From: Akkermansia muciniphila
Lineage (GTDB): Bacteria; Verrucomicrobiota; Verrucomicrobiia; Verrucomicrobiales; Akkermansiaceae
Assembly (NCBI GenBank): GCA_945860285.1
Contig: CAMAQB010000004.1
Coordinates: 12,164 to 76,163 of the forward strand
DNA length: 64,000 nucleotides
Reading direction: 5' to 3'
In this document: positions 11,296 to 64,000 of the stretch, one piece after another
How positions within the stretch are numbered: position 1 is the stretch's first letter
Layout of the letters: each line of letters opens with the position of its first letter
Notes under the pieces: model-generated
The model's database searches: none
What the model saw: only the letters and a program-made list of their open reading frames with translations
What the model was told of the DNA's origin: nothing
Program-made: the position numbers and the translations under genes

Positions 11296-12735
11296 TCAAC
11301 CGACACTGCCTTCCATTTCGAGATCGATGAGGCGCTTGAGTTCGACGCTGTATTCCATGGGGAATTCGCGGACGAGGTCGTTGATGAAGCCATTGACGGC
11401 AAGGGACATCGCAGCGCCCTCGCTGATGCCGCGCTGCATCATGTAGAACAGCATTTCGCGCGACACTTGGCTGACACTGGCCTCGTGCTGTGTGGCATGC
11501 TGGTTGCCCTTCACGGTGATCGCGGGATACGTGTCGGTGCGCGACTTGTTGTTGATCAACAGGGCATCGCACTCGGTGTTGTTCTTGCAGCCCTTCAGAT
11601 GTTTCGGAATGAACACCTGGCCGCGATAGGTGGCGCGCCCGGTGCCCACGGAAATGGATTTCGAAACCACATTCGAGGTCGTTTCATCCGCCGCATGGAT
11701 CATCTTGGCACCGGTGTCCTGATGCTGACCGGTGTTGGCAAGCGCGATGGAAATCACCTCGCCGCGGGCCCTGCGGCCTTTCATGATGACCCCCGGGTAT
11801 TTCATCGTCAGTCGCGAACCGATGTTGCAATCGATCCAGCGCACCTCCGCGTCCTCCATCGCAAGTCCGCGTTTGGTGACCAGGTTGAAAACATTCGACG
11901 ACCAGTTTTGCACGGTCACGTATTGGATTTTCGCACCCTTGAGGGCGACGAGTTCCACCACCGCCGAGTGCAGTGTGGCGGTCTCGAATTTCGGCGCGGT
12001 GCAACCTTCCATGTACATCAACTCCGCGCCCTCGTCGGCGATGATCAGCGTGCGCTCGAATTGCCCGAAGCTTTCCGAGTTGATGCGGAAATAGGCCTGC
12101 AGCGGTTGCTTGAGTTTCAGGCCCTTGGGGATGTAAATGAAAGAACCGCCCGAAAAAACCGCCGAGTTCAGCGCCGAGAACTTGTTGTCGCCGGTGGGTA
12201 TCACCTTGCCAAACCAGGGACGGAAAATTTCCTCGTGCTCTTTCAGGCCTTCCGACGAGTTGACGAAGATCACACCTTGTTTGGTGAGTTCCTCCTTGAC
12301 GTTCGAATAGGCGGCCTCGGAGTCGAACTGTGCCTCCACGCCGGCAAGAAAGGCGCGCTCCTGTTGCGGAATGCCGAGTCGCTCAAATGTCTCCAACACA
12401 TCCGCGGGAACGTCGTCCCATGAGCGTTTCGGCTTTTCTCCATCCGAAAGATAGTAGCGGATCTGGTCAAAGTCGATGTTGTCAAGATCATGGGTCGCCC
12501 AGTTGGTGGGCATGGGTTTGTCGCGAAACACCTTCAAGGCCCGGTGACGGAATTCACGCACCCATTGCGGGTCGTTCTTCACGTCGCTGATGTAATCGAT
12601 GGTTTTTTCAGTTAGCCCGCGACCGGCATCGAACTTGTTGCGCTCGGGAAAGGTGAAATCGCCGATCGAGCGGTCGATGTTCACGGCTTCGACCGTATCG
12701 GTGTCGAGGGTGTCGGGAAGTAGTTCAAGGGACAT
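11296..12735 (-). CDS. sufB: Fe-S cluster assembly protein SufB
   Basis: 479 aa. [11 protein letters not shown]..., [13 protein letters not shown], ...[26 protein letters not shown]...[28 protein letters not shown] are typical SufB sequences. Confidence 0.92.
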
Positions 12736-40283: not shown

Positions 40284-41261
40284 TCATTCGGCCGATGGCA
40301 CCACGCCGTTGGCGCAGAACACGTCGCCCGAGCCATTGAGGAAGTTGACAAGGTTGTTCAGGGCCTTCAGAGCCTGACGCGGCACGCTTTCGTATGTGCG
40401 CGAGCCGACATGCGCTGTGACGATCGCCTTGGGATGGCGGAGCAGAGGGTCGTCGGTCGCCGGTGGTTCCTGCTCCATGACATCGGTGGCATAGCCGGCG
40501 AGACGACCGGAATCCAACGCTTCGAGGATCGCCGCGGCATCCGCGAGTTCCCCGCGACCGGTGTTCACGATCACCGCCCCGTCAGGCAGCAGCGCGAGGC
40601 GCTCGCGGTTGATGAGGTGCCTGCTATCCGCCGAAAGTTTGGTATGCGGGCTGATGATGTCGCACGCGGAAAAAATCGAATTGATCGACTCGTGACGGAT
40701 CACGTTGTGTTGTTCGCAAAACGAATCTGGCCAGAAATGACCATAGCCGTGCACTTCCATGCCGAAGGCTTTGGCGCGGATGATCACCTCCTGACCGATG
40801 CGGCCGAGACCGATGACACCGATTTTTTTCGCGTAAAGTTCATGGCCGGTGAGGCGCAGCCATTCGCCCCGACGCGTGGCATCGACACTGGGAATCAGGT
40901 TTTTCAACAGCGCCAGCAAAAGACAAAAGGTATGTTCCGCCACCGTGGTGTGGTTGACCCCCGGAGTGAACATCACCGGAATATTCATCTCTTTGGTGGT
41001 GGCGAGGTCGATCTTGTCGAGGCCGATGCCATACTTGGAAATCACCTTGAGCCGTGGTGCCGACTTTTCCAACACCGCGCGGGTGATCGCATCATCGCCA
41101 CAGAGAAAGGCATCGAACTCCCCGGCCAGATCCAGCATTTTCGCCTCGCTGAGCGGACCGCGGGCACGGATCACGTCGTATCCCTGGGAGATCAACAACT
41201 CATGGTGCGGACCCGGAGTGTCCTGAAAACTGCAAGTGGTGAGTAATACGCGTGTCGTCAT
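40284..41261 (-). CDS. D-isomer-specific 2-hydroxyacid dehydrogenase family protein
   Basis: KKIGVIGLGRIGQEV (NAD-binding GxGxxG), ...AVIVNTGRGELAD..., ...TAHVGSRT... The track start 41264 is TTG; the ATG is at 41261. Confidence 0.8.
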   Translation of the reverse strand: MTTRVLLTTCSFQDTPGPHHELLISQGYDVIRARGPLSEAKMLDLAGEFDAFLCGDDAITRAVLEKSAPRLKVISKYGIGLDKIDLATTKEMNIPVMFTPGVNHTTVAEHTFCLLLALLKNLIPSVDATRRGEWLRLTGHELYAKKIGVIGLGRIGQEVIIRAKAFGMEVHGYGHFWPDSFCEQHNVIRHESINSIFSACDIISPHTKLSADSRHLINRERLALLPDGAVIVNTGRGELADAAAILEALDSGRLAGYATDVMEQEPPATDDPLLRHPKAIVTAHVGSRTYESVPRQALKALNNLVNFLNGSGDVFCANGVVPSAE

Positions 41262-55383: not shown

Positions 55384-55401
55384 GACCGTTGCATAACGGT
55401 C
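55384..55401. repeat. Island palindrome, variant copy GACCGTT-GCAT-AACGGTC
   Basis: Half-sites ACCGTT / AACGGT are identical to the three downstream copies. The central 4 nt is GCAT instead of ACGT. Lies 67 nt upstream of the amidase ATG. Confidence 0.8.
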
Positions 55402-55467
55402 GTCACTCAGTCTTCTGCGCGTCCACTATTTTTTATGGTTACTGCCGGTTGACGGCTGGGTAATCGT

Positions 55468-56010
55468 ATGAAGAAACAAATCGCGCTGGTGGTAGGGCAT
55501 GAGCCAGGTGGCGGTGCTGAGGGTGAGCGGGCGTATAATTTAATTGTTCAAAAGAGCCTGAAGGAAATGCTTGAGGCGGAGGGCTTCGATGTGTTCGCGT
55601 ATGTGCATGAGCTTAAATCCTACGGGGCACGGCAAGCGGCAATGGCGGCGGCGGTCAATAAGGCGCAACCGCAAAACTTGATTTGCGTGGAGCTGCATTA
55701 CAATGACGTGGATGCCGAGCCTGCGAATGGGCACCAGTTCCACTACAATGCGTGTAGGGGGCTGGCGGTGGCATTTGCGAGTGAGTGGCAGAAGACATTC
55801 CCCAGCTCGCGTGCGCGGCAGGACAGGGGCACGCTGCACACGCCTACGGGTGATGGTGCAGGGTTTCTAAGAAAGTCTCCAGGGCTGGCTGTGCTGGTGG
55901 AGCCGTTTTTCCACTCGAACAAGATTGAGTGGATGTTTTTTCGTAATAAGCAAAAGGAAGTGGCAGAGGCATACGGACGGGCAATCATTCAATTCACGAA
56001 AAAACTTTGA
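55468..56010 (+). CDS. N-acetylmuramoyl-L-alanine amidase (Amidase_3-like; phage endolysin candidate)
   Basis: ALVVGHEPGGGAEG.E..., ICVELHYND, AVLVEPFFHSN match the Zn-ligand contexts of the MurNAc-LAA family. No signal peptide. Confidence 0.7.
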   Translation: MKKQIALVVGHEPGGGAEGERAYNLIVQKSLKEMLEAEGFDVFAYVHELKSYGARQAAMAAAVNKAQPQNLICVELHYNDVDAEPANGHQFHYNACRGLAVAFASEWQKTFPSSRARQDRGTLHTPTGDGAGFLRKSPGLAVLVEPFFHSNKIEWMFFRNKQKEVAEAYGRAIIQFTKKL

Positions 56011-56225
56011 TGTTTGGGGCGAAAGTAAATTTTGTGGATGGGCTGCGGGGGTGGATGGATCGCTTGCCGATTCGTTTGCGGCGGTCGGAGAAAGAATTGA
56101 GTGTGGCAGCGGGTGAGGTAACTCCGATCGCGGAAACGGAGGGGCAAGAAGCAGTCATCGGGGCGATGGGCTGGGGCGGTGCCAAGTGGAATGGTGAGGT
56201 GGCTAAGGTTTTGAAAGATATATGA
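56010..56225 (+). CDS. Hypothetical phage protein (71 aa)
   Basis: ORF translationally coupled on both sides (TGATG at 56008-56012; ATGA at 56222-56225). No TM segment and no family recognised. Confidence 0.45.
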   Translation: MFGAKVNFVDGLRGWMDRLPIRLRRSEKELSVAAGEVTPIAETEGQEAVIGAMGWGGAKWNGEVAKVLKDI

Positions 56226-56635
56226 GAAACGCATTAGCGGCAGCATGGGCAGATGATTTAGCAGGGCGCGTAGCGATACCGGTCTATGCGCAGCGGCGAG
56301 ACGCGGCGGCGGTGCCACCGTTTGCAGTGGTGCGCGTAGAGGAGCTGGAGCAGGTGGTGGGCGGCGCGGATGTCTGGCACGGGGAAGTGCGAGTGGTGGT
56401 GGTGACAGATATTTACCGCGAGGGCGGGGAGTCTGTAGCAGCGCACCATTCGGCGGTGGCGGATATTTACAGAGCGCTGGAGGAGACGGTGAAGGACAGC
56501 TGCGATATGGACCGAAATGTGCGGTTGTATGGATTCGATTTGCACCGGCACGAGGAAGTGCAGGTAAGCAGCCCACGTGGAGAAAAGGTGTATGCGGATG
56601 TTTTTTTCATCACGGCGGGCGCGGGGCGCGTGTGA
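56222..56635 (+). CDS. Hypothetical phage structural protein (possible tail-completion/terminator-type, by position)
   Basis: 137 aa, immediately upstream of the putative major tail gene. Weak resemblance to DUF3168-type proteins (VYAQRRD...PPFAVVRVEE...). The assignment is positional. Confidence 0.4.
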   Translation: MRNALAAAWADDLAGRVAIPVYAQRRDAAAVPPFAVVRVEELEQVVGGADVWHGEVRVVVVTDIYREGGESVAAHHSAVADIYRALEETVKDSCDMDRNVRLYGFDLHRHEEVQVSSPRGEKVYADVFFITAGAGRV

Positions 56636-56795
56636 TGCCCCTGCCCTCCTAGATCAGAGCGGAGCGTTCACTGTAGCGCGCATGTTTTGCGTTGGCTTAC
56701 GATAGTTACTAGGATTTTCTGGGCTTAGGTACACTTCTACCTAAGGATAGATGCCGCCCCTCTGCCCACCCCTAGGTTGACAGGACAACAAAGGC

Positions 56796-57164
56796 ATGGC
56801 TTTTACAAAACATGGGAACGGCGATTACATTTTTGGTTTTAACGATCCATCGGCGTTGGCGATTGCGGCGGCGGTCGGGGTGAAGCCGCAAACTTTAAGT
56901 CTTAGCTTCACTCCTGAATTCACGGCACAGGCGGAAAACGAGGATGCCGAAGTGGATAGCGTGGTGGTGGGTGCGGATACAGTGGATTTCACTCTGAGCG
57001 GGTATCTGGTGGATCAGGAGCTTTTCGAGGAGGGCGCATCGTTTGAGTTCGCCGGACGTTACTTTATCATCATGAGTCGTAAGTTGGACCTTAACAATAA
57101 GGACTACTGCAAAGCCGAGCTGGCTGGTAAGTCTCATTTGAATGTTACTGGTTTGGCTGATTGA
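56796..57164 (+). CDS. Putative major tail protein (positional assignment)
   Basis: 122-aa acidic, beta-rich ORF occupying the slot two genes upstream of the tape measure gene. Followed by a strong terminator. Confidence 0.4.
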   Translation: MAFTKHGNGDYIFGFNDPSALAIAAAVGVKPQTLSLSFTPEFTAQAENEDAEVDSVVVGADTVDFTLSGYLVDQELFEEGASFEFAGRYFIIMSRKLDLNNKDYCKAELAGKSHLNVTGLAD

Positions 57165-57183
57165 TTTTTTGTTGTAGTGTGGG

Positions 57184-57220
57184 AACGGCGAGAGGGAAAC
57201 TTCTCGCCGTTTTTTCTTTT
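57184..57220 (+). terminator. Rho-independent terminator
   Basis: AACGGCGAGA-gggaaact-TCTCGCCGTT (10-bp stem) followed by TTTTTCTTTT. Lies 20 nt after the stop of the putative major tail gene. Confidence 0.75.
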
Positions 57221-57229
57221 GACGCGTTG

Positions 57230-57245
57230 ACCGTTACGTAACGGT
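57230..57245. repeat. Island palindrome ACCGTTACGTAACGGT (perfect 16 bp)
   Basis: Perfect inverted repeat that ends immediately before ATG 57246. Overlaps the GTTGAC box at 57226-57231. Confidence 0.9.
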
Positions 57246-57914
57246 ATGACGAATAAAGAGCGGTTTTATGAGGCGTTTGCGCACACGGAGCATGTAGTGT
57301 TCGGTCGAAAGCTGAAACGATTCACACTGCGGCACAGGTTTTGGCTGGAGACGCTGGAATGCGGTGCGGTGGTGGGCGGCACAGTGGACTGGCCAGCGGT
57401 GGAGCTGGGGGTGCGAATTTGCTCTATGCCATACGAGGGGCTGGACGATGCGGTGAAGAAGCTGCTCAGGCGTGGGCCGAGATGGTGGGAGGCATGGCGT
57501 TTTTTATGGCGGGCCATGCGCGGCGACTTGGCAAAAGAATACGGCGCTCTGCTGGAATACATGGGCGATCACGGCTGCGCGCCGGAGCGGAATGGTGATG
57601 GCGGTGGGGCGGGCATGACTTACGAGGCTATGCCCGGTCTGCTGAGTCTGGTGTGTGGGGTGGTGCGTGCTAGTGGCGGGTGGTCGCCGGATACGGTATG
57701 GTCATTGAGTCCAGGAGAAGCAGAGTGGTATTGCACGGCGTGTTACATGCACCGAGGGGTGGACATGGGGATTAAGACCGAGCATGATGAGAGATTTGAA
57801 GCGGGGCTGGCGGAGCATGGCGAGGCGATCCGCGCAGTGATCGCGGAGGCAAAGCGGAAGCGCAAAGAAGCGGCGGCAGCAAAGGCGGCCGAGGCTGCGG
57901 AGGCGGCAGATTGA
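57246..57914 (+). CDS. Hypothetical phage protein in tail-assembly-chaperone position
   Basis: 222-aa ORF directly upstream of the tape measure gene, with a C-terminal Ala/Lys/Glu-rich tail. Function is inferred only from gene order. No slippery frameshift site was noticed. Confidence 0.4.
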   Translation: MTNKERFYEAFAHTEHVVFGRKLKRFTLRHRFWLETLECGAVVGGTVDWPAVELGVRICSMPYEGLDDAVKKLLRRGPRWWEAWRFLWRAMRGDLAKEYGALLEYMGDHGCAPERNGDGGGAGMTYEAMPGLLSLVCGVVRASGGWSPDTVWSLSPGEAEWYCTACYMHRGVDMGIKTEHDERFEAGLAEHGEAIRAVIAEAKRKRKEAAAAKAAEAAEAAD

Positions 57915-57921
57915 GGGGTTG

Positions 57922-57937
57922 ACCGTTACGTAACGGT
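57922..57937. repeat. Island palindrome ACCGTTACGTAACGGT (perfect 16 bp)
   Basis: Identical to the copy at 57230. Ends immediately before ATG 57938 and overlaps the GTTGAC box at 57918-57923. Confidence 0.9.
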
Positions 57938-60900
57938 ATGGCGAATCAACAAACGACGACGACCGCTAATGTGGTGGTGCAAAGCTCCGGCATCGGTAAA
58001 TTAAAAAGCCAGTGGGCGGATTTCACGGGATCGTTATTGGAGCCGATCGCAATTTTAGCGTCGGGTGGATCTAAGGTGCAAGCGTTGTGGGCTGGGGTGC
58101 GCTCTATATTTATGGCAAAAGTTCTCGGGCCGCTGGAGCTGGGGGTGGGAGCATCGCTGGCGTTCTTGGTGATGACGAAGCGATTGGTGAGCGCGTGGAA
58201 GGAGCTGGGTATGTCCTCGGCGGCGACGCTGGAGCGGATGACGCTACAGTTCCGGCCATTGCTCGGTAGCATGGAGCGAGCGCGTGATCGGGTGAAGGAG
58301 CTGATGGAGTTCACGGAGCGGACACCCTTCCGATTGGAGGAAACGGCGGAGGCGAATAAAATTTTAGAAGCGCTGACAAAGGGCGCATTGTCAGGGCGCG
58401 AGGGCATGTTGTTAGTCGGTGATGCGGCGGCGGTGGCGGGGGTGGGACTATCCGAGGCGGCACGTTATACGGGACGGCTGTATGACGGGCTGATGAGTGG
58501 CCGGCCAGTGGGTGAAGCTGCCATGCGATTGCAGGAGATGGGTATCATCACGGGGCAAACGCGGAATCAGATTGAGAGCTTGCAGGCGACGAATACGAGC
58601 GGGTTGGCGATTTGGCGAATGGTGCAGGCAGAGATGGCGAAAAATAAGGGCGCGATGGATGATATGAGCGTATCGCTGGAGGGCCTACAATCGACGTTTG
58701 AGGACACGAAGATGAGTCTGCAAGCGGGCTTCAGCGAAAATTTCATGGAGGGGGAAAAGGCGGGTATCAAGAGCAGCATTGCGCTGATGAAGCTGATTCA
58801 GCCAGTGGCGGAAGAAATGGGGAAAGCCTTTGGCGAATTGAGTAATTGGTGGGCGAATTTGAAAAACAAGGCGGTGGAAAGTGCGACGACTATCCAGGGG
58901 CTGGGCACGACGATCACGTGGTTGGTGAAGGGTCTGCTCGGATTTGCTGGTGCGTTAGCTTTAACGGGCGGGGTGGCAATGGCGGGATTTATCGCCAAGA
59001 TTTTATTAGTGGCGGCGGGAAATAAGGCTGCGGCGCAATCGCAGGTAATGCTGAATGCGGTGCAAGGCAGTAGCGTGGGAGTAATGGCAAAGCTGACCTC
59101 GATGAAGAATAGTGCGCTGGCGGCGATCCGTGCGAATGCGGCGGGGCTGAGAGCGGAAGCTGCTGCGCACATGCAGGCAGCGGGAGCAGCGGGGCGAAAC
59201 ATCGTGGCGACGAATGGGGTGACGGCGGCGACGCGGGTGGCATCTCTATCGTTTAAGGGCATGGGCATGGCGCTGCGGTTTGTGGGGGCGCAGTTCAAGT
59301 TGCTGGCAGTTTCGATGCTGACGAATCCCCTGTTTTTGGTTATAGCAGCATTGGTCGCGGTGGGAATAACGCTCAAGCATTTTAGCGATCAAACGGCGGC
59401 GGCGAAAAAGCAGCAGGATGATTATGCGAAAAGCACGGACGCGCTGATGAGTAAGATGACGCGCGAATCGAGGGAGATCCGCACGAAGATCGATCTGCGC
59501 CGTCAGGAGGCCGCGGCGATCGGAGAACTCGGGAAAGCGTATGCGGCACTGGAGGGGGCTGATGATGCCAAGATGAAGTCGCTAGCAAATGAGCGGATTG
59601 ATAAATTACGAAAACAGCTGGAAGGAATTCGCGGAAAAAGCGGCATAGTTGAAAAATCAGAAAACCAATATGGCCGCGATGCGGAAAACCGGGCGGATAG
59701 CGTGGCAGCAGATCGATCGGGTGAAGATATATTTTCAGAGAGAGGGCCGGAGCAAGCGTTGGCGATTGCAGAAAAAAGGCTGGCGGTGATCGAGGAGAGA
59801 AGGCGTGCGGCGATTGAATTAGAACAACTGGAAGCGGCCGCCGAGAAGCGGGCGGATGCGGCGGTGGTGGCCGGTCAGGAGAACTTGCTTCGTGAGCAGC
59901 AGATCATGCGGGAGATGGCGGTGCTGAATGAGGGGTTGGCAAATCATGGCAAAGGATGGGAAACGGCGGGTGAAACTCAGGACCGCCATAAAAAGCAGCG
60001 CGCGAAAAAAGCAGAGTTAGAAGCCGAGCTTGTAGGAATCCGCATGAATCAACAAGGCGGGGGCGCGGAGTTGTCTGCACAGCTCAATAGTGGCAGTGAG
60101 CAAATGGCGCTGAATGCAAAAATCGCGGCGTATGACCAAATGATGGAAGCGGCGAAAGAGGTGGAGGATGCGAATGTCGCTGTCGCTAATGCGGAAAAAG
60201 ATGGTCTGGCCGCTGCGAAAGAGAGCCTGGATATAGCACTTCAACGGGCGGCGGTGGCGAATGGCGTAGCTGGCCAGGCGGGAGTGATAGGCTGGGGCGC
60301 GGGCAATCGCAAAGAAGGTGTGGATAAAGTGAGTGAACTGGAAACCCGGCGGAGCGAGGATATCTCCACCGATCGCAAAATCAAGGCGGCGGCGGAAACA
60401 AAAAAATTAGCGTATGATGTGATGCGCGCACGACTGGATGGTGAGGCGGCGGTGGACAGTATTCGCTTAAGGGGTGATGAGCGCGAAGCGAAATTATTAG
60501 AGATCGAAAGGGAAAAGCTGGAGCTGAAAAAACAAAGTAACCTGATCGGTGCGCAAGCGTATGATCGGGAGAGCGAGAGTCTCAATGCTAAGGCCGAGGC
60601 TCTGAAGAAAGAGTCGAAGGAAAAGCGCGAGATCATGGTGCAGGGAATGGTGCTCGGTAAATTGCAGCGGGCGATGGCAGAGGCGCAGTTGAAGGGTGAC
60701 GCGAAGGGCGCGAAAAATCTGCGTGATGAAATAGCGCGGCGTGAAAAGGCGGCGGAGCAAGCTGCGGCGGAGCGGGACTCAAAGGAGATCGGCGGCAAGG
60801 GAAATCAGGAAGAATATGTAAAGCTGCGGATGGCTGCATTTACGGAGCAGCAAAAAATGGAAGAAGACGCACGGAAGCGTAATGAAAAGGAAAGCCAGAG

Positions 60901-61303
60901 AGCGACGCGTGCTGATGTTCAATCCGGTGTGGTGGGAGTGCAGGCGCGGGTGCTGAAGATGCAAGGCAATCATGATGGCGCGAAAGCGATGCTAAAGGAA
61001 GATCAGGCAAAGCAGGACGAGCTGGCACGGGCTGCGCGCGCAAAGGCTCTTCGCGCCGATGGATTTAGCAAGGGAGAAGCCTCGGCCTTGGCGAGAGATG
61101 AAATGAAGTCAAAGCAGGGGGAGCGGATTCTTAACAAGCTATTCGATCAAAAGGGAACCGTGGTGGCGGGGAGCATGGCACAGATCGGCGGCGGTGGCGG
61201 GGTGTATGGAAATGACCCACAAGCGAGAGCGCTAGAAAAAGCGACGCGGGTGCTGGAGCAGATCCGCGATAATACGGTGAAGACGGTGGAGGATGCTTGG
61301 TGA
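57938..61303 (+). CDS. Phage tail tape measure protein
   Basis: 1121 aa. Hydrophobic segments near residues ~320-480 (GLGTTITWLVKGLLGFAGALALTGGVAMAGFIAKILLVAAG; LTNPLFLVIAALVAVGITL) and very long Ala/Glu/Lys/Arg-rich helical regions. Canonical position in a siphovirus tail module. Confidence 0.8.
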   Translation: MANQQTTTTANVVVQSSGIGKLKSQWADFTGSLLEPIAILASGGSKVQALWAGVRSIFMAKVLGPLELGVGASLAFLVMTKRLVSAWKELGMSSAATLERMTLQFRPLLGSMERARDRVKELMEFTERTPFRLEETAEANKILEALTKGALSGREGMLLVGDAAAVAGVGLSEAARYTGRLYDGLMSGRPVGEAAMRLQEMGIITGQTRNQIESLQATNTSGLAIWRMVQAEMAKNKGAMDDMSVSLEGLQSTFEDTKMSLQAGFSENFMEGEKAGIKSSIALMKLIQPVAEEMGKAFGELSNWWANLKNKAVESATTIQGLGTTITWLVKGLLGFAGALALTGGVAMAGFIAKILLVAAGNKAAAQSQVMLNAVQGSSVGVMAKLTSMKNSALAAIRANAAGLRAEAAAHMQAAGAAGRNIVATNGVTAATRVASLSFKGMGMALRFVGAQFKLLAVSMLTNPLFLVIAALVAVGITLKHFSDQTAAAKKQQDDYAKSTDALMSKMTRESREIRTKIDLRRQEAAAIGELGKAYAALEGADDAKMKSLANERIDKLRKQLEGIRGKSGIVEKSENQYGRDAENRADSVAADRSGEDIFSERGPEQALAIAEKRLAVIEERRRAAIELEQLEAAAEKRADAAVVAGQENLLREQQIMREMAVLNEGLANHGKGWETAGETQDRHKKQRAKKAELEAELVGIRMNQQGGGAELSAQLNSGSEQMALNAKIAAYDQMMEAAKEVEDANVAVANAEKDGLAAAKESLDIALQRAAVANGVAGQAGVIGWGAGNRKEGVDKVSELETRRSEDISTDRKIKAAAETKKLAYDVMRARLDGEAAVDSIRLRGDEREAKLLEIEREKLELKKQSNLIGAQAYDRESESLNAKAEALKKESKEKREIMVQGMVLGKLQRAMAEAQLKGDAKGAKNLRDEIARREKAAEQAAAERDSKEIGGKGNQEEYVKLRMAAFTEQQKMEEDARKRNEKESQRATRADVQSGVVGVQARVLKMQGNHDGAKAMLKEDQAKQDELARAARAKALRADGFSKGEASALARDEMKSKQGERILNKLFDQKGTVVAGSMAQIGGGGGVYGNDPQARALEKATRVLEQIRDNTVKTVEDAW

Positions 61304-61477
61304 GCAGACGCTGTGTCTCGTCTTGGTCGGCGCGAAGGCCGGATTCGCTGCCTAACGATGAGCGCATGCACCACTACCAGCAGCGGCGGGCATCGATCAC
61401 GGGGTTATTATTGTAATTACGGAAAATCATCGAAACAGGGCGACTGGTAGTGGTTGTCATGACGCGGCTTGTTGGGC

Positions 61478-62311
61478 TTATTTATTCTGCTGGAAGATGG
61501 AGTGGAAATCCTTCAGTAACTCAGCCTTAAGGACAATACCCAGATTGTTGGGAATTCCTGCGATACTCACAGCCTTCTGGTGGACGGGAATTGTCACCAC
61601 TCGGACATCACCCTCAACTGTGTGTTGCGGCCCAGCGTAAAGAACGCCTAGCAACTTGATACGCGATCCCATGACAATTTCATTGCGTCTTAAATATGAC
61701 CCTGCATCAAAGACGAGAACTGGCGATCCACTCGATCCCGGAAAACAAGCAGCATCAATCAAAAACTCCTTCTTGCCGTTCCAGTCTTTGTCGTAGGCGG
61801 AGGCCAAAACACCACGGCGAAAGATTGGTAAGTTGTTCGTGCTATCCCACAGGCCATTCGGATAGCCCACCATGGTAATCGACTCAATCCCCACAAAATC
61901 CTCAACATCTGCTGGAGTCGGCAGGAGTGAATCATCAAACCCAATGTAGAAAAACTTCACGCCTCGGCTCTCAGCATGATGGAGAAGTGGGGCGATCGGC
62001 ATGATCGCTAAGTCAATATTGGGGTCAGGATGTCTGATCCACCTCGAATCAAACGAGTCAAATTCGAACGTCTCATGCCTTCCATAATCCGGCATGCCTT
62101 CTGAATCCTGAAGCGTCATCAAAAATCGCCCCTTGGAAGCGCCATCGATAACATGTCGATTTGTGACTATGGCCGGCACATGTTGACCTCCATCGATTGC
62201 GAAGCTGTAAAAGAATCCAGAACCCGTGCCACGTCCTCCGTCGGGATAGTCAGTCTCAATCCGCACTGTGCTGTGGGAGAGTTCTTCAATAGGCGTAAGT
62301 TTGCGTTTCAT
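61478..62311 (-). CDS. Trypsin-like (S1/chymotrypsin-fold) serine protease, cytoplasmic; moron-like insert
   Basis: Triad contexts IVTNRHVIDG (His), NIDLAIMPI (Asp), CFPGSSGSPVLVF (Ser). No signal peptide. Opposite strand to all other island genes and visibly lower GC. The track start 62356 is TTG; the ATG is at 62311 (MKRKLTPIEE...). Confidence 0.75.
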   Translation of the reverse strand: MKRKLTPIEELSHSTVRIETDYPDGGRGTGSGFFYSFAIDGGQHVPAIVTNRHVIDGASKGRFLMTLQDSEGMPDYGRHETFEFDSFDSRWIRHPDPNIDLAIMPIAPLLHHAESRGVKFFYIGFDDSLLPTPADVEDFVGIESITMVGYPNGLWDSTNNLPIFRRGVLASAYDKDWNGKKEFLIDAACFPGSSGSPVLVFDAGSYLRRNEIVMGSRIKLLGVLYAGPQHTVEGDVRVVTIPVHQKAVSIAGIPNNLGIVLKAELLKDFHSIFQQNK

Positions 62312-62474
62312 ATATTTTACCCAACAGTATAATTCGTTCAGAAGAAGATTAATCAAATTTAACGATTTAAAAAAGAATTCTTATGATAATTTTGCAAACC
62401 CTTTATTCATAAGGGGAAAACTTCTGTAGTCACAGATGTTTGAATACTTAGACAACAGAACAATCGTGGCTAAG

Positions 62475-62495
62475 CATCTGTGATTTCCACAGATG
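62475..62495. promoter_or_regulatory. Operator-like inverted repeat CATCTGTG-N5-CACAGATG
   Basis: Perfect 8-bp arms in the divergent region between the protease gene and the gene starting at 62566. A third half-site CACAGATG is at 62431-62438. Confidence 0.4.
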
Positions 62496-62565
62496 CCGCA
62501 ATGAACCGCCTCGCCTCACCCGCCTCGCCTCAGTGGTCTGCCGCAGTTGACTGGGAGCGTAGAGC

Positions 62566-63285
62566 ATGTTGGCTCATGGGAGTAATGGTCTAGTGCTGGA
62601 GCATAGCGGCAAGCTGAAAAGTGACCGTTATGGATTGTGGACGGGACGCTTGCGTTTTAGTATGCCGGCGACTCGCCCAGAATTGCTGCCTGCGGTGGGA
62701 AGTGTGCACCCTGGGGTGAGTTGGATGCATTGCGAGGATCGTGATATCACGCTGACTCCTGGGCGGTGGCTGGTGGATTGCAGCTATGTGGGCACGGATG
62801 CGATCGATACGACGGCGGTGTATGAGCTGCAGCGGAATACGAATACGGAGCCGATCGAGACTCATGAAAAATTCGTAACGCATATTGCAGGGAAGCCGAG
62901 CGCCCCGCTGAACGGAGCATTGTTTGTGGATGAAGATGGCACCCCGACGGCGGATGATAAGCGAGGATTGTTTCACCGTTTCATCGCGGTAAAGCCTGAT
63001 GGAAGTCGGAATCGATTTGCGGGAATGACGGGGTTTTTATCGCCAAGCAGCACGCAGTGGGTGAAGTCGTGGACGAGCCGAACGAAGCCGACCGATGGGG
63101 GTGGTGTAGGGAAAATCGATACGCCGGAGGGAGGGGCTACGAGCTTCGCGGGCTGCGACTGGCTTTATGTGGGAATGCAATTTTCTGAGCGAGTGGGCGT
63201 CTATAGCATACGGAAGTCGTGGATGCTGAGTGGCCGCGGCGGCTGGATTCCAGAAGTCTATGAGCCTGACGGAGCCACTTCTTAG
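62566..63285 (+). CDS. Hypothetical phage tail protein (distal-tail position)
   Basis: 239-aa ORF, the first same-strand gene after the tape measure gene. A GTTGAC box 19 nt upstream supports ATG 62566. No family recognised. Confidence 0.5.
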   Translation: MLAHGSNGLVLEHSGKLKSDRYGLWTGRLRFSMPATRPELLPAVGSVHPGVSWMHCEDRDITLTPGRWLVDCSYVGTDAIDTTAVYELQRNTNTEPIETHEKFVTHIAGKPSAPLNGALFVDEDGTPTADDKRGLFHRFIAVKPDGSRNRFAGMTGFLSPSSTQWVKSWTSRTKPTDGGGVGKIDTPEGGATSFAGCDWLYVGMQFSERVGVYSIRKSWMLSGRGGWIPEVYEPDGATS

Positions 63286-63291
63286 CGGTTG

Positions 63292-63307
63292 ACCGTTACG
63301 TAATGGT
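63292..63307. repeat. Island palindrome, one-mismatch copy ACCGTTACGTAATGGT
   Basis: 15 of 16 positions identical to the copies at 57230 and 57922. Ends 1 nt before ATG 63309. GTTGAC box at 63288-63293. Confidence 0.85.
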
Positions 63308-63308
63308 G

Positions 63309-64000
63309 ATGAGTGATTTTTTATCCAAGTTAACTCCGGTGAAACGAGGGATGAGCCCGGCGCAGCTGGCGAGTCCGGAGCGCATCGAGGCGCTGCAACA
63401 GGCAATCGTGGCACTGTGGGAGGGGCGGAACCTGACGACTCGAGGCGTGCCTGTGAGCAGCGGTGCTAGTAGTCGCCATGGGCGGCGGTTCGTGCCGCTG
63501 TTCGCGCATGGGAAGTTACGGATCGGCCTGGGGACGGTGGCCTTAAAGCAATCACTAACGCCACTGATTGAGCCGCATTACCCGCTATTCAACGAGGTGA
63601 AGATTGATGCGGATGAGGCCCCAGCGATGGATTTGGCGGATATGGCAGCAGGCGATTATCAGATTGTTTTGCTTTGCAGTAGTAATAGCCGGATTGTAGT
63701 GCAGCTAGTCAGCGAGGAGATTGTAAAAGAGGAGGATGAGCAAGCCGTGCAACTGGCGACGTTCACAATGGGAGCGGGCGCGGTGGGTGTGGTGGAGGAT
63801 GTGCAGCACTTATGGCGGAGTGATGTATTTATTTCCAGGGGGGCGTGCCCATTTGGTGATGTGTTCGTGTTGTTGGAAGGTGAGATCGCGACTACTTATC
63901 TCTCGGGGGGAGTGTTGACGGGTGGCGAAACCAATGATGTGATCGCCGATATTGAGATAGACCTAGGAAGTCCAAATGGCACTTGGCTTTGGATGTTGGT
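63309..64000 (+). CDS. Hypothetical phage protein, N-terminal 230 aa (continues beyond window)
   Basis: Own translation MSDFLSKLTPVKRGMSPAQLASPERIEALQQAIVALWEGRNL... is open to the window end, so it is absent from the track. An in-frame ATG at 63303 is an alternative start. Confidence 0.6.
   Translation, partial: MSDFLSKLTPVKRGMSPAQLASPERIEALQQAIVALWEGRNLTTRGVPVSSGASSRHGRRFVPLFAHGKLRIGLGTVALKQSLTPLIEPHYPLFNEVKIDADEAPAMDLADMAAGDYQIVLLCSSNSRIVVQLVSEEIVKEEDEQAVQLATFTMGAGAVGVVEDVQHLWRSDVFISRGACPFGDVFVLLEGEIATTYLSGGVLTGGETNDVIADIEIDLGSPNGTWLWML

Follow-up and report, generated by a model that had tools for sequence, protein, structure and literature searches.

The window considered here is a stretch of 64,000 nucleotides from Akkermansia muciniphila (Verrucomicrobiota; Akkermansiaceae), corresponding to positions 12,164 to 76,163 of contig CAMAQB010000004.1 in assembly GCA_945860285.1, and it harbors a phage-like tail module between 55400 and 64000. 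Within this module, a tape-measure-like gene (57938..61303, plus strand, 1121 aa) and a 239-aa gene in the distal-tail position (62566..63285, plus strand) are separated by a gene on the opposite strand (61478..62311, minus strand; ATG at 62311 and TAA at 61480-61478) that encodes a 277-aa serine protease with matches to Pfam Trypsin_2, to the PADLOC family PDC-S45 and to PHROG 7688. No other credible gene lies on the minus strand between 55468 and 64000, in agreement with a preliminary description of this DNA, which had called it the only minus-strand gene of the island. We show that this gene is a promoterless integron gene cassette consisting of a 13-nt leader, an open reading frame (ORF) and a 128-nt attC recombination site, and the structural part of our reading taken alone (cassette, attC site and insertion) is held with high confidence.

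The attC site and the boundaries of the cassette

The attC site (61350..61477, minus strand) begins directly after the stop codon of the protease gene with the R″ box GCCCAAC (61477-61471) and ends with the R′ box GTTAGGC (61356-61350). Its two boxes and its 128 nt agree with the pattern by which attC sites were recognized (R″ of the form RYYYAAC, R′ of the form GTTRRRY, and a length of 57-141 nt), and between the boxes it shows the expected architecture of 5-nt unpaired spacers and an L-box stem. Part of this stem is the 11-bp inverted repeat (61444-61454 and 61370-61380) that had been described earlier downstream of the gene at exactly this position, although its identity as an attC stem was missed. 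The repeat pairs in the minimum-energy fold, and about 0.004 such repeats are expected by chance per 175 nt according to our estimate. A reading of the repeat as a transcription terminator was rejected: it is followed by no T-run, its distal arm is not kept in the two closest relatives of the cassette (L134 and L135, see below) and it belongs to an attC that is itself repeated in the genome.

The 3′ region of the protease gene is indeed repeated within its own genome, where eight copies align across about 128 nt. Their consensus ends in xxxGAAC and GTTCxxx and has unpaired spacers of 5 nt, a long stem bulged on its 5′ arm and a variable center. Pairing is kept in 88% of the cells of this alignment, with compensatory changes in 10 of 22 pairs, whereas none of 500 shuffles paired as well and slid controls reached at most 45%. 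The extra bases lie on the 5′ arm (between R″ and L″), and their identity differs from the classical G/T. A covariance model of the family (R1), which matches the site in the window with 135.9 bits, detected 14 copies in this genome with E below 1e-3, or 17 when matches up to E 1 are counted, some of them as same-strand pairs: C9:56659-56787 and C9:57465-57592 on the minus strand; C57:15025-15151 with C57:16010-16136 and C25:36708-36835 with C25:38164-38261 on the plus strand; and further copies at C76:433-561 and on contigs C30, C39, C32, C5, C7, C19 and C26. The family is VCR-like, genus-specific and about 128 nt long, and is partly organized in short same-strand arrays of the kind of CALIN/SALIN-type remnants. 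Several copies lie near contig ends, and the arrays of this genome are probably under-assembled. Upstream of one attC copy on C9 lies a 99-aa ORF (C9:57911-58210, minus strand) with a DinJ/RelB-like antitoxin N-terminus, which by eye looks like a toxin-antitoxin cassette of the same array.

Related genomes connect this attC family to an integron integrase. Seven of the 15 congeners encode an IntI that exceeds the curated TIGR02249 threshold of 265 bits (with 321-345 bits), and in 14 control genomes no match was obtained at E≤1e-30. In one of these congeners (G006), contig C51 carries intI (345 bits, minus strand) followed by an AT-rich attI region, a 152-aa ORF and an R1 attC site (135 bits, plus strand), which is the canonical integron layout; three further congeners (G014, G010 and G005) harbor same-strand attC arrays with a spacing of about 0.45-1.5 kb. 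The attC of the protease cassette is thereby shown to belong to a genus-specific family that flanks intI and forms cassette arrays in sister genomes. In the genome of the window itself, a 52-aa C-terminal IntI fragment with 75% identity to the IntI of G006 is found on C118 (9506-9661, minus strand), 166 nt from the contig end, and it stems either from decay of intI or from a break in the assembly within an integron platform.

The other end of the cassette is defined by a 5′ core site GTTGGGT (62319..62325, minus strand; GTTRRRY) that contains the crossover point and lies 17 nt upstream of the ATG. The cassette spans 969 nt (61356..62324, minus strand) and runs from TTGGGT through the 13-nt leader TTGGGTAAAATAT and the ORF into the attC, as far as the G of R′; it is bounded by G↓TTGGGT and G↓TTAGGC (the arrow marks the crossover). 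These limits are set by the start of homology with relatives at G↓TT and by the ends of the attC. The closest relatives, L134 and L135, are marine metagenome contigs whose proteases are 90% identical at the protein level, and their DNA homology with the window runs from 62325 to 61379, starting at the G of GTTGGGT and reaching into the attC. L135 shows an attC on either side of the protease gene; in L134 the 3′ half of the attC is replaced and followed by an IS110-family transposase, and in L083-L085 (81% identical proteases) an attC again lies directly after the stop codon. The transposase gene of L134 (L134:1450-2568; DEDD_Tnp_IS110 and Transposase_20) is located just past the replaced half and looks like an attC-targeting insertion of the IS1111 type. 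The IS110 family includes attC-targeting members, and IS110-family elements also target repetitive extragenic palindromic (REP) sequences.

This last point, together with the several genomic copies that stand single between apparently ordinary genes, would also suit a REP-like or miniature inverted-repeat transposable element (MITE)-like nature of the 128-nt hairpin, the insert having come by ordinary phage recombination. The canonical RYYYAAC/GTTRRRY ends that abut ORF stops, the same-strand arrays, the copy placed directly after the first ORF past intI in G006 and the onset of homology with relatives at the G↓TT point all argue otherwise, and we regard such an origin as scarcely probable.

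Insertion into the tail module and the attI-like junction

The insertion of 1262 nt lies exactly between the stop codon of the tape-measure-like gene, which it leaves unaltered, and the GTTGAC box of the next gene (62546..62551, plus strand), so that both genes are intact. It is made up of 52 nt between the tape-measure stop and the R′ box (61304..61355), the cassette, and an AT-rich spacer of about 220 nt upstream of the cassette (62326..62545) that is absent from relatives. The corresponding empty site is found in the congener G005, an Akkermansiaceae metagenome-assembled genome (MAG), which possesses a homologous tape-measure gene (67-79% protein identity) and a homologous next gene; its junction reads TGA, 34 nt, ATG, as against 1262 nt here, with the stop and start codons in the same register in both genomes. 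The 34 nt contain GTTGAC and then a 14-nt palindromic stretch; in the window the box is kept and the palindromic stretch that follows it is replaced. Five distant Verrucomicrobial modules (L098-L103) have no insert either, the homologue of the next gene coming right after the tape-measure gene. Since G005 and the five distant modules lack it, a gain of the cassette in this lineage is the parsimonious reading of these sequences, in support of the earlier suggestion that the gene was acquired separately from the tail module. The term moron, under which that suggestion was made, describes correctly an extra gene between conserved phage genes that is absent at the same site of related elements, but it is incomplete, since it leaves out that the element is an integron gene cassette, delimited exactly at G↓TT. 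Of the promoter and terminator that a moron carries, there is an AT-rich upstream region devoid of a consensus minus-strand promoter, and a 3′ hairpin that is the attC, without a T-run.

The gene names used for the module require some caution. The tape-measure label, taken over from the preliminary description, corresponds to a weak match (PHROG 1686, E 3e-5) and the distal-tail label to position only, directly after the tape-measure gene in relatives; an AlphaFold2 (AF2) model of the 239-aa protein was unusable, with a predicted local distance difference test (pLDDT) of 35. An endolysin-like gene with Amidase_3/CwlD-like matches is found at 55468-56010, and the other ORFs of the tail module matched nothing in Pfam and NCBIfam even at E≤1. 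In the distant modules, a head maturation protease (PHROG 53) stands beside the major head gene, and the tape-measure protein has 800 aa (PHROG 8462, E 1e-13).

Base composition also separates the insert from its surroundings. The protease coding sequence (CDS) has 49.2% GC (52% at third codon positions, GC3) and the region upstream of it (62312-62565) 40.9%, with a lowest 60-nt window of 18%, compared with 56.5% for the genome, in which only 3.2% of windows of 834 nt are as AT-rich as the CDS. The low GC content reported earlier therefore holds for the gene, but the value of 65% then set against it came from one rich line of the tape-measure gene, whose average is 56.2%. The coding strand of the tail island (55400-64000) shows an unusually strong purine bias throughout, with a GC skew of +0.2 to +0.43 and an AT skew of up to +0.4, and this bias collapses exactly across the protease insert.

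Several repeats were observed in the spacer and around the junction. In the spacer, CACAGATG occurs at 62431 and 62488 and its complement CATCTGTG at 62475, and a 13-mer, CCGCCTCGCCTCA, is repeated in tandem at 62506 and 62520; over the segment 62431-62532 the sequence turns from AT-rich to GC-rich. The GTTGAC box together with its palindromic stretch forms a 23-nt element (GTTGACCGTTACGTAACGGTATG) that recurs at 57226-57248, 57918-57940 and 63288-63307 and in G005 (L092:549-571). It is 100% identical between both genomes, the surrounding genes being only 67-75% identical at the DNA level, and such conservation would fit a regulatory or start signal under strong constraint in the tail module. 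Where the palindrome is replaced, at the junction that lies downstream of the insert, the sequence reads GTTGAC TGGGAGCGTAGAGC.

The DNA directly 5′ of the crossover (62325..62345, minus strand) ends in ACGAATTATACTG↓TT, a motif that is unique within its own genome and that resembles the attI core of the integrons of the genus, a likeness confined to about 17 nt (MAFFT was uninformative beyond them). This core reads TACGAATAAA[A/T]ACTG↓TT in G006 and G014 taken together, and by congener TACGAATAAAAACTG↓TT in G006, TACGAATAAATACTG↓TT in G014 and CTACTAATAAATACTG↓TT in G005. A BLAST comparison of the insert flanks with the attI regions gave no similarity, and the 220-nt spacer is possibly a promoter donor or attI-derived. 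On the path of entry, the integron integrase may have used a GTT site, attI-like or secondary, that was already present in the spacer, or an attI-plus-cassette fragment may have been captured from a chromosomal integron. A more far-reaching reading is that the phage-like tail element serves integron cassettes as a recipient platform through an attI-like landing site of its own (ACGAATTATACTG↓TT), so that the integrase would have placed a self-contained one-gene sensor-plus-effector protease defense in a prophage structural operon; this reading is speculative and in our judgment unlikely.

Two described situations are close to the one observed here. As in the attG insertions of Loot et al. (10.1101/2022.09.11.507474), the cassette lies outside an integron with G↓TT at both sides, and the target deduced for it, ACTG↓TTAGGC, obeys the GWT rule; cassettes can insert at such non-att GWT sites and be expressed there. 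Unlike the attG case, the 5′ flank resembles the attI core of the genus, and an attI-derived origin is equally possible. The second comprises integron gene cassettes for phage defense (BRiCs; 10.1101/2024.07.02.601719, 10.1101/2024.07.02.601686) and integron parts reported in phage genomes (Qi et al. 2023, PMC9892861), with which the present cassette shares the make-up of one small ORF and an attC, the G↓TT boundaries, an attC family common to intI-linked arrays and a phage-like carrier. Unlike them, the cassette here is single, outside an array and on the strand opposite to the tail operon, in a genome with only an intI remnant.

The protease family and its distribution

The product of the cassette is a stand-alone cytoplasmic serine protease of chymotrypsin fold (S1, PA clan; double beta-barrel) that belongs to PDC-S45. 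The motifs TNRHV (residue 50), DLAIM (residue 100) and GSSGSPV (residue 192) provide the catalytic triad His53/Asp100/Ser194 in that order, the catalytic serine being the second one of GSSG as aligned with the GNSGGP of HtrA-type proteases (HhoA has TNAHV and GNSGGP). H53 and D100 never vary across 66 homologues, and the conservation of S194 among them is at least 90%. No signal peptide or membrane segment was detected, and the cytoplasmic location follows from the hydrophilic N-terminus and from the lack of any 19-residue window above a Kyte-Doolittle mean of 1.32; the full triad and the missing signal peptide both agree with what had been read from the sequence at first. The protein matches Pfam Trypsin_2 (PF13365), the search that had been proposed for it, with 50.7 bits against a cut-off of 27.6 (E 4.3e-13), the PADLOC PDC-S45 profile (PDLC05022) with E 2.9e-111 (residues 3-275 on profile positions 13-285, 273 of 293) and PHROG 7688, a family of unknown function, with E 7e-73, and it has no match in NCBIfam. 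A weak homology to the protease domain of RT-Protease_XI (retron/UG type XI fusions of reverse transcriptase (RT) and protease) was also found (E 4e-4).

An AF2 model built from the 66 homologues (pLDDT 79, predicted TM score (pTM) 0.81) retrieved 136 PDB chains at E≤0.001 with Foldseek, and the best 50 of these 136 are almost all HtrA-type or 3C/TEV-like proteases. The best matches (HtrA, DegQ, DegS and 3C/TEV-like; E about 5e-7, TM about 0.5) share 13-19% identity with the protease; by sequence, no solved relative was found below E 0.1, and a BFVD fold search returned only generic 3C-like proteases. The protein thus resembles HtrA/DegP/DegQ/DegS (S1C) in fold, in the His-Asp-Ser order and in the DAA..PG.SG.P motif, and differs from them by the lack of a hydrophobic N-terminus and of a PDZ match, where that family possesses a signal peptide and a C-terminal PDZ domain, by its cytoplasmic location, and by an extra conserved segment (residues 228-255) followed by a C-terminal helix. 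Residues 228-255 are highly conserved in sequence with an AF2 pLDDT below 50, and the helix after them is modeled confidently; the segment may be considered a candidate regulatory or substrate-gating loop.

Homologues of the protease number more than 3396 and are typically 272 aa long. Identities of 60-67% are observed between Planctomycetota, Cyanobacteria, Nitrospirota and Gammaproteobacteria, and one Thermoplasmata MAG also carries a homologue, which suggests strong constraint and frequent transfer. A close copy was found in only one of 121 sampled Akkermansiaceae genomes (its own) and in none of the 11 other members of the genus. When the ORFs of 86 homologous loci were clustered, no conserved neighbor emerged and no family occurred in more than 7 of the 86 loci; among immediate neighbors the top Pfam family reached 3 of 141. 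The 104 of 141 neighbors located on the same strand were judged uninformative. The view that no sensor partner is visible is confirmed by these counts, since none was found in the window or conserved in the 86 loci. A partner gene was rejected as well for the 137- to 156-aa ORFs upstream of the gene in its closest relatives, which are separate cassettes with an attC between and are absent here.

The genes found beside homologues include integrases, transposases, BrnT toxins, restriction enzymes, DISARM, MADS, PARIS-like (PbeA/AriA-like) and DRT genes, and other PDC genes. On 30 IMG/VR contigs the neighbors are integrase, lysis, tail and terminase genes, in no fixed position. The recommended search for homologues in defense islands or other prophages was in this way positive on both counts, with occurrences beside DISARM, restriction, MADS and DRT genes and in phage contigs. 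A more distant relative of 206 aa (L159; 34% identity, without the N-terminal His region) is encoded by Shigella phage SfII at 40429-41049, where it adjoins IS911 between the lysis genes and the HNH endonuclease/terminase end, and it is probably a truncated moron copy.

These phage occurrences bear on whether the protease serves the phage itself, as a virion or tail maturation protease or as a counter-defense enzyme directed against host immunity proteins. Its place inside a tail module, the phage-borne members of PHROG 7688 and the viral-contig relatives beside tail, lysis and terminase genes would be in agreement with such a role. Against it, the gene is absent at the same junction in the congener and in the five distant relatives, which use the PHROG 53 head protease of another family; it stands on the opposite strand, its position in phages varies, and most homologues are chromosomal or in cassettes. 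A head maturation protease would be expected beside the portal and capsid genes and in related modules; those modules have their PHROG 53 protease next to the major head gene and lack the present gene. We therefore consider a service to the phage very unlikely.

The family also appears to travel as cassettes elsewhere. A crude generic attC detector was applied to 107 homologous loci with the 99th percentile of shuffles as threshold, and attC-like sites exceeded it at 13 of the 107 loci, where about 1 is expected; by this detector at least 12% of PDC-S45 loci are cassettes. By inspection, textbook attC sites are present in Zetaproteobacteria, Cellvibrionaceae, Burkholderiales, Lysobacteraceae and others. 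The frequent packaging of PDC-S45 in integron cassettes is not mentioned in the literature that we consulted on PDC-S45.

Possible function and significance

PDC-S45 belongs to the PDC catalogue, which comprises 145 single- and multi-gene candidates selected by "guilt-by-embedding" among genes that lie within BREX, DISARM and type I restriction-modification loci (10.1101/2024.01.29.577857), and a PDC-S45 match was reported in a phiLM21-like prophage of Sinorhizobium meliloti (PMC12429752). The protease of the window agrees with PDC-S45 in length (about 272-277 aa), stand-alone architecture and prophage occurrence, and no difference in sequence or architecture was observed, so that the single-gene defense proposed for it at first sight would correspond to an existing catalogue entry. 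Integron cassettes, for their part, are rich in phage defenses and have been described as reservoirs of compact defense systems (10.1101/2024.07.02.601719; 10.1101/2024.07.02.601686); a trypsin-like or other protease cassette is not mentioned in the integron defense papers searched (10.1101/2024.07.02.601719; 10.64898/2026.03.17.712381; 10.1101/2024.07.02.601686). On the basis of the PDC-S45 listing, of the defense-rich and mobile neighborhoods of homologues and of the role of cassettes as defense reservoirs, we propose that cassette and stand-alone protease together constitute a one-gene anti-phage (abortive-infection) module of a prophage, a statement which, taken as a whole, we regard as evenly poised.

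According to this proposal, the protease would be transcribed from the AT-rich spacer (62326-62545) and held inactive in uninfected cells; a phage protein would bind it and switch it on, and the activated protease would cleave an essential protein of the host or of the phage and abort the infection, in a way analogous in logic to Lit. Lit, from the E. coli prophage e14, is a prophage-borne single-gene cytoplasmic protease that brings about abortive infection after activation by a phage protein, the mode of action proposed here. It is a zinc metalloprotease whose target is EF-Tu and whose trigger is the Gol peptide of T4, and it has no homology to the protease described here, of which it is only a functional analogue. 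Trypsin-like immune effectors are known to act with partners, as in the modules in which trypsin and a metallo-β-lactamase (MBL) are associated with Hachiman, Avs2 or Argonaute (10.1101/2025.09.03.673762). The trypsin-MBL, Avs2 and RT modules share with the present case a chymotrypsin-fold protease in immunity, and differ from it in that no MBL, STAND, RT or other partner is found here, either in the window or in the 86 loci.

A number of points weigh against the proposal. PDC-S45 is listed as a candidate by guilt-by-embedding only (10.1101/2024.01.29.577857), and the census of neighbors is qualitative, generic ATPase and helicase models inflating the PADLOC hits. The putative phage nature of the island is read from the weak tape-measure match and from synteny with distant modules; no head genes are present within the window, the contig ends 1.2 kb past it, and the source genome is a MAG. 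No intact intI was found in this 98%-complete assembly, where the best TIGR02249 match reaches 85 bits against the cut-off of 265, nor was a complete integron with intact intI, attI and array. As to the flanks, the 17-nt extent of the attI likeness is to be added to the absence of own-genome copies of both the 220-nt and the 52-nt sequences, for which the congeners offer only low-complexity matches of 43 nt. Finally, a consensus scan, which does not model Verrucomicrobial promoters, detected no sigma-70-like promoter for the protease gene in the minus-strand sequence upstream of it.

In view of the last observation, silence of the cassette is conceivable. Having no promoter of their own, cassettes are expressed only in the vicinity of one (10.1101/2022.09.11.507474), and this requirement, along with the lack of an intact IntI in the genome, would fit a silent passenger, an off-target by-product of the integrase left unexpressed opposite the tail operon and without function in this element. 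Nevertheless, the protease ORF is intact and keeps all invariant residues of its family, and the 220-nt AT-rich upstream region (18-41% GC) could be a promoter in a genome of 56% GC; a silent passenger appears improbable to us. A different possibility is that the protease of a real cassette has a role other than defense, in stress or regulation, as an addiction or toxin-like stabilizer of the array, or in bacterial competition. Most integron cassettes are of unknown function and the defense label of PDC-S45 is associative (10.1101/2024.01.29.577857); a toxin-antitoxin cassette seems to exist in the same attC family, given the DinJ-like ORF beside the C9 copies, and BrnT toxins are among the neighbors of homologues. 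Conversely, members of the family are repeatedly found within or next to loci of DISARM, restriction-modification, MADS and DRT systems, they also occupy moron slots of prophages, and no conserved antitoxin-like partner accompanies it among the homologous loci, so that a role outside defense is unlikely, if somewhat less so than silence.

The element is, in summary, an integron cassette of a catalogued family of defense candidates, with defense as the candidate role of its protease as judged from sequence comparison. What is new in it is modest, namely the phage tail location, the empty site that corresponds to it and the junction resembling attI; the protease is a member of a catalogued family and represents no new kind of system. 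It nonetheless offers a natural, base-precise case of an integron cassette that lies in a phage tail module instead of an integron, with the empty site of a sister genome for comparison, and it reveals chromosomal integrons in a freshwater/marine genus of Akkermansiaceae, their attC family being VCR-like and genus-specific. If the attI-like platform proved true, it would link chromosomal integron "biobanks" with prophage-borne immunity in Verrucomicrobiota. For the family as a whole, the results support the spread of the PDC-S45 protease as an integron cassette across many phyla, and with about 275 aa, a single gene and an obvious catalytic knock-out, PDC-S45 would be a cheap candidate with which to examine for the first time whether a trypsin-like protease can act against phages on its own.

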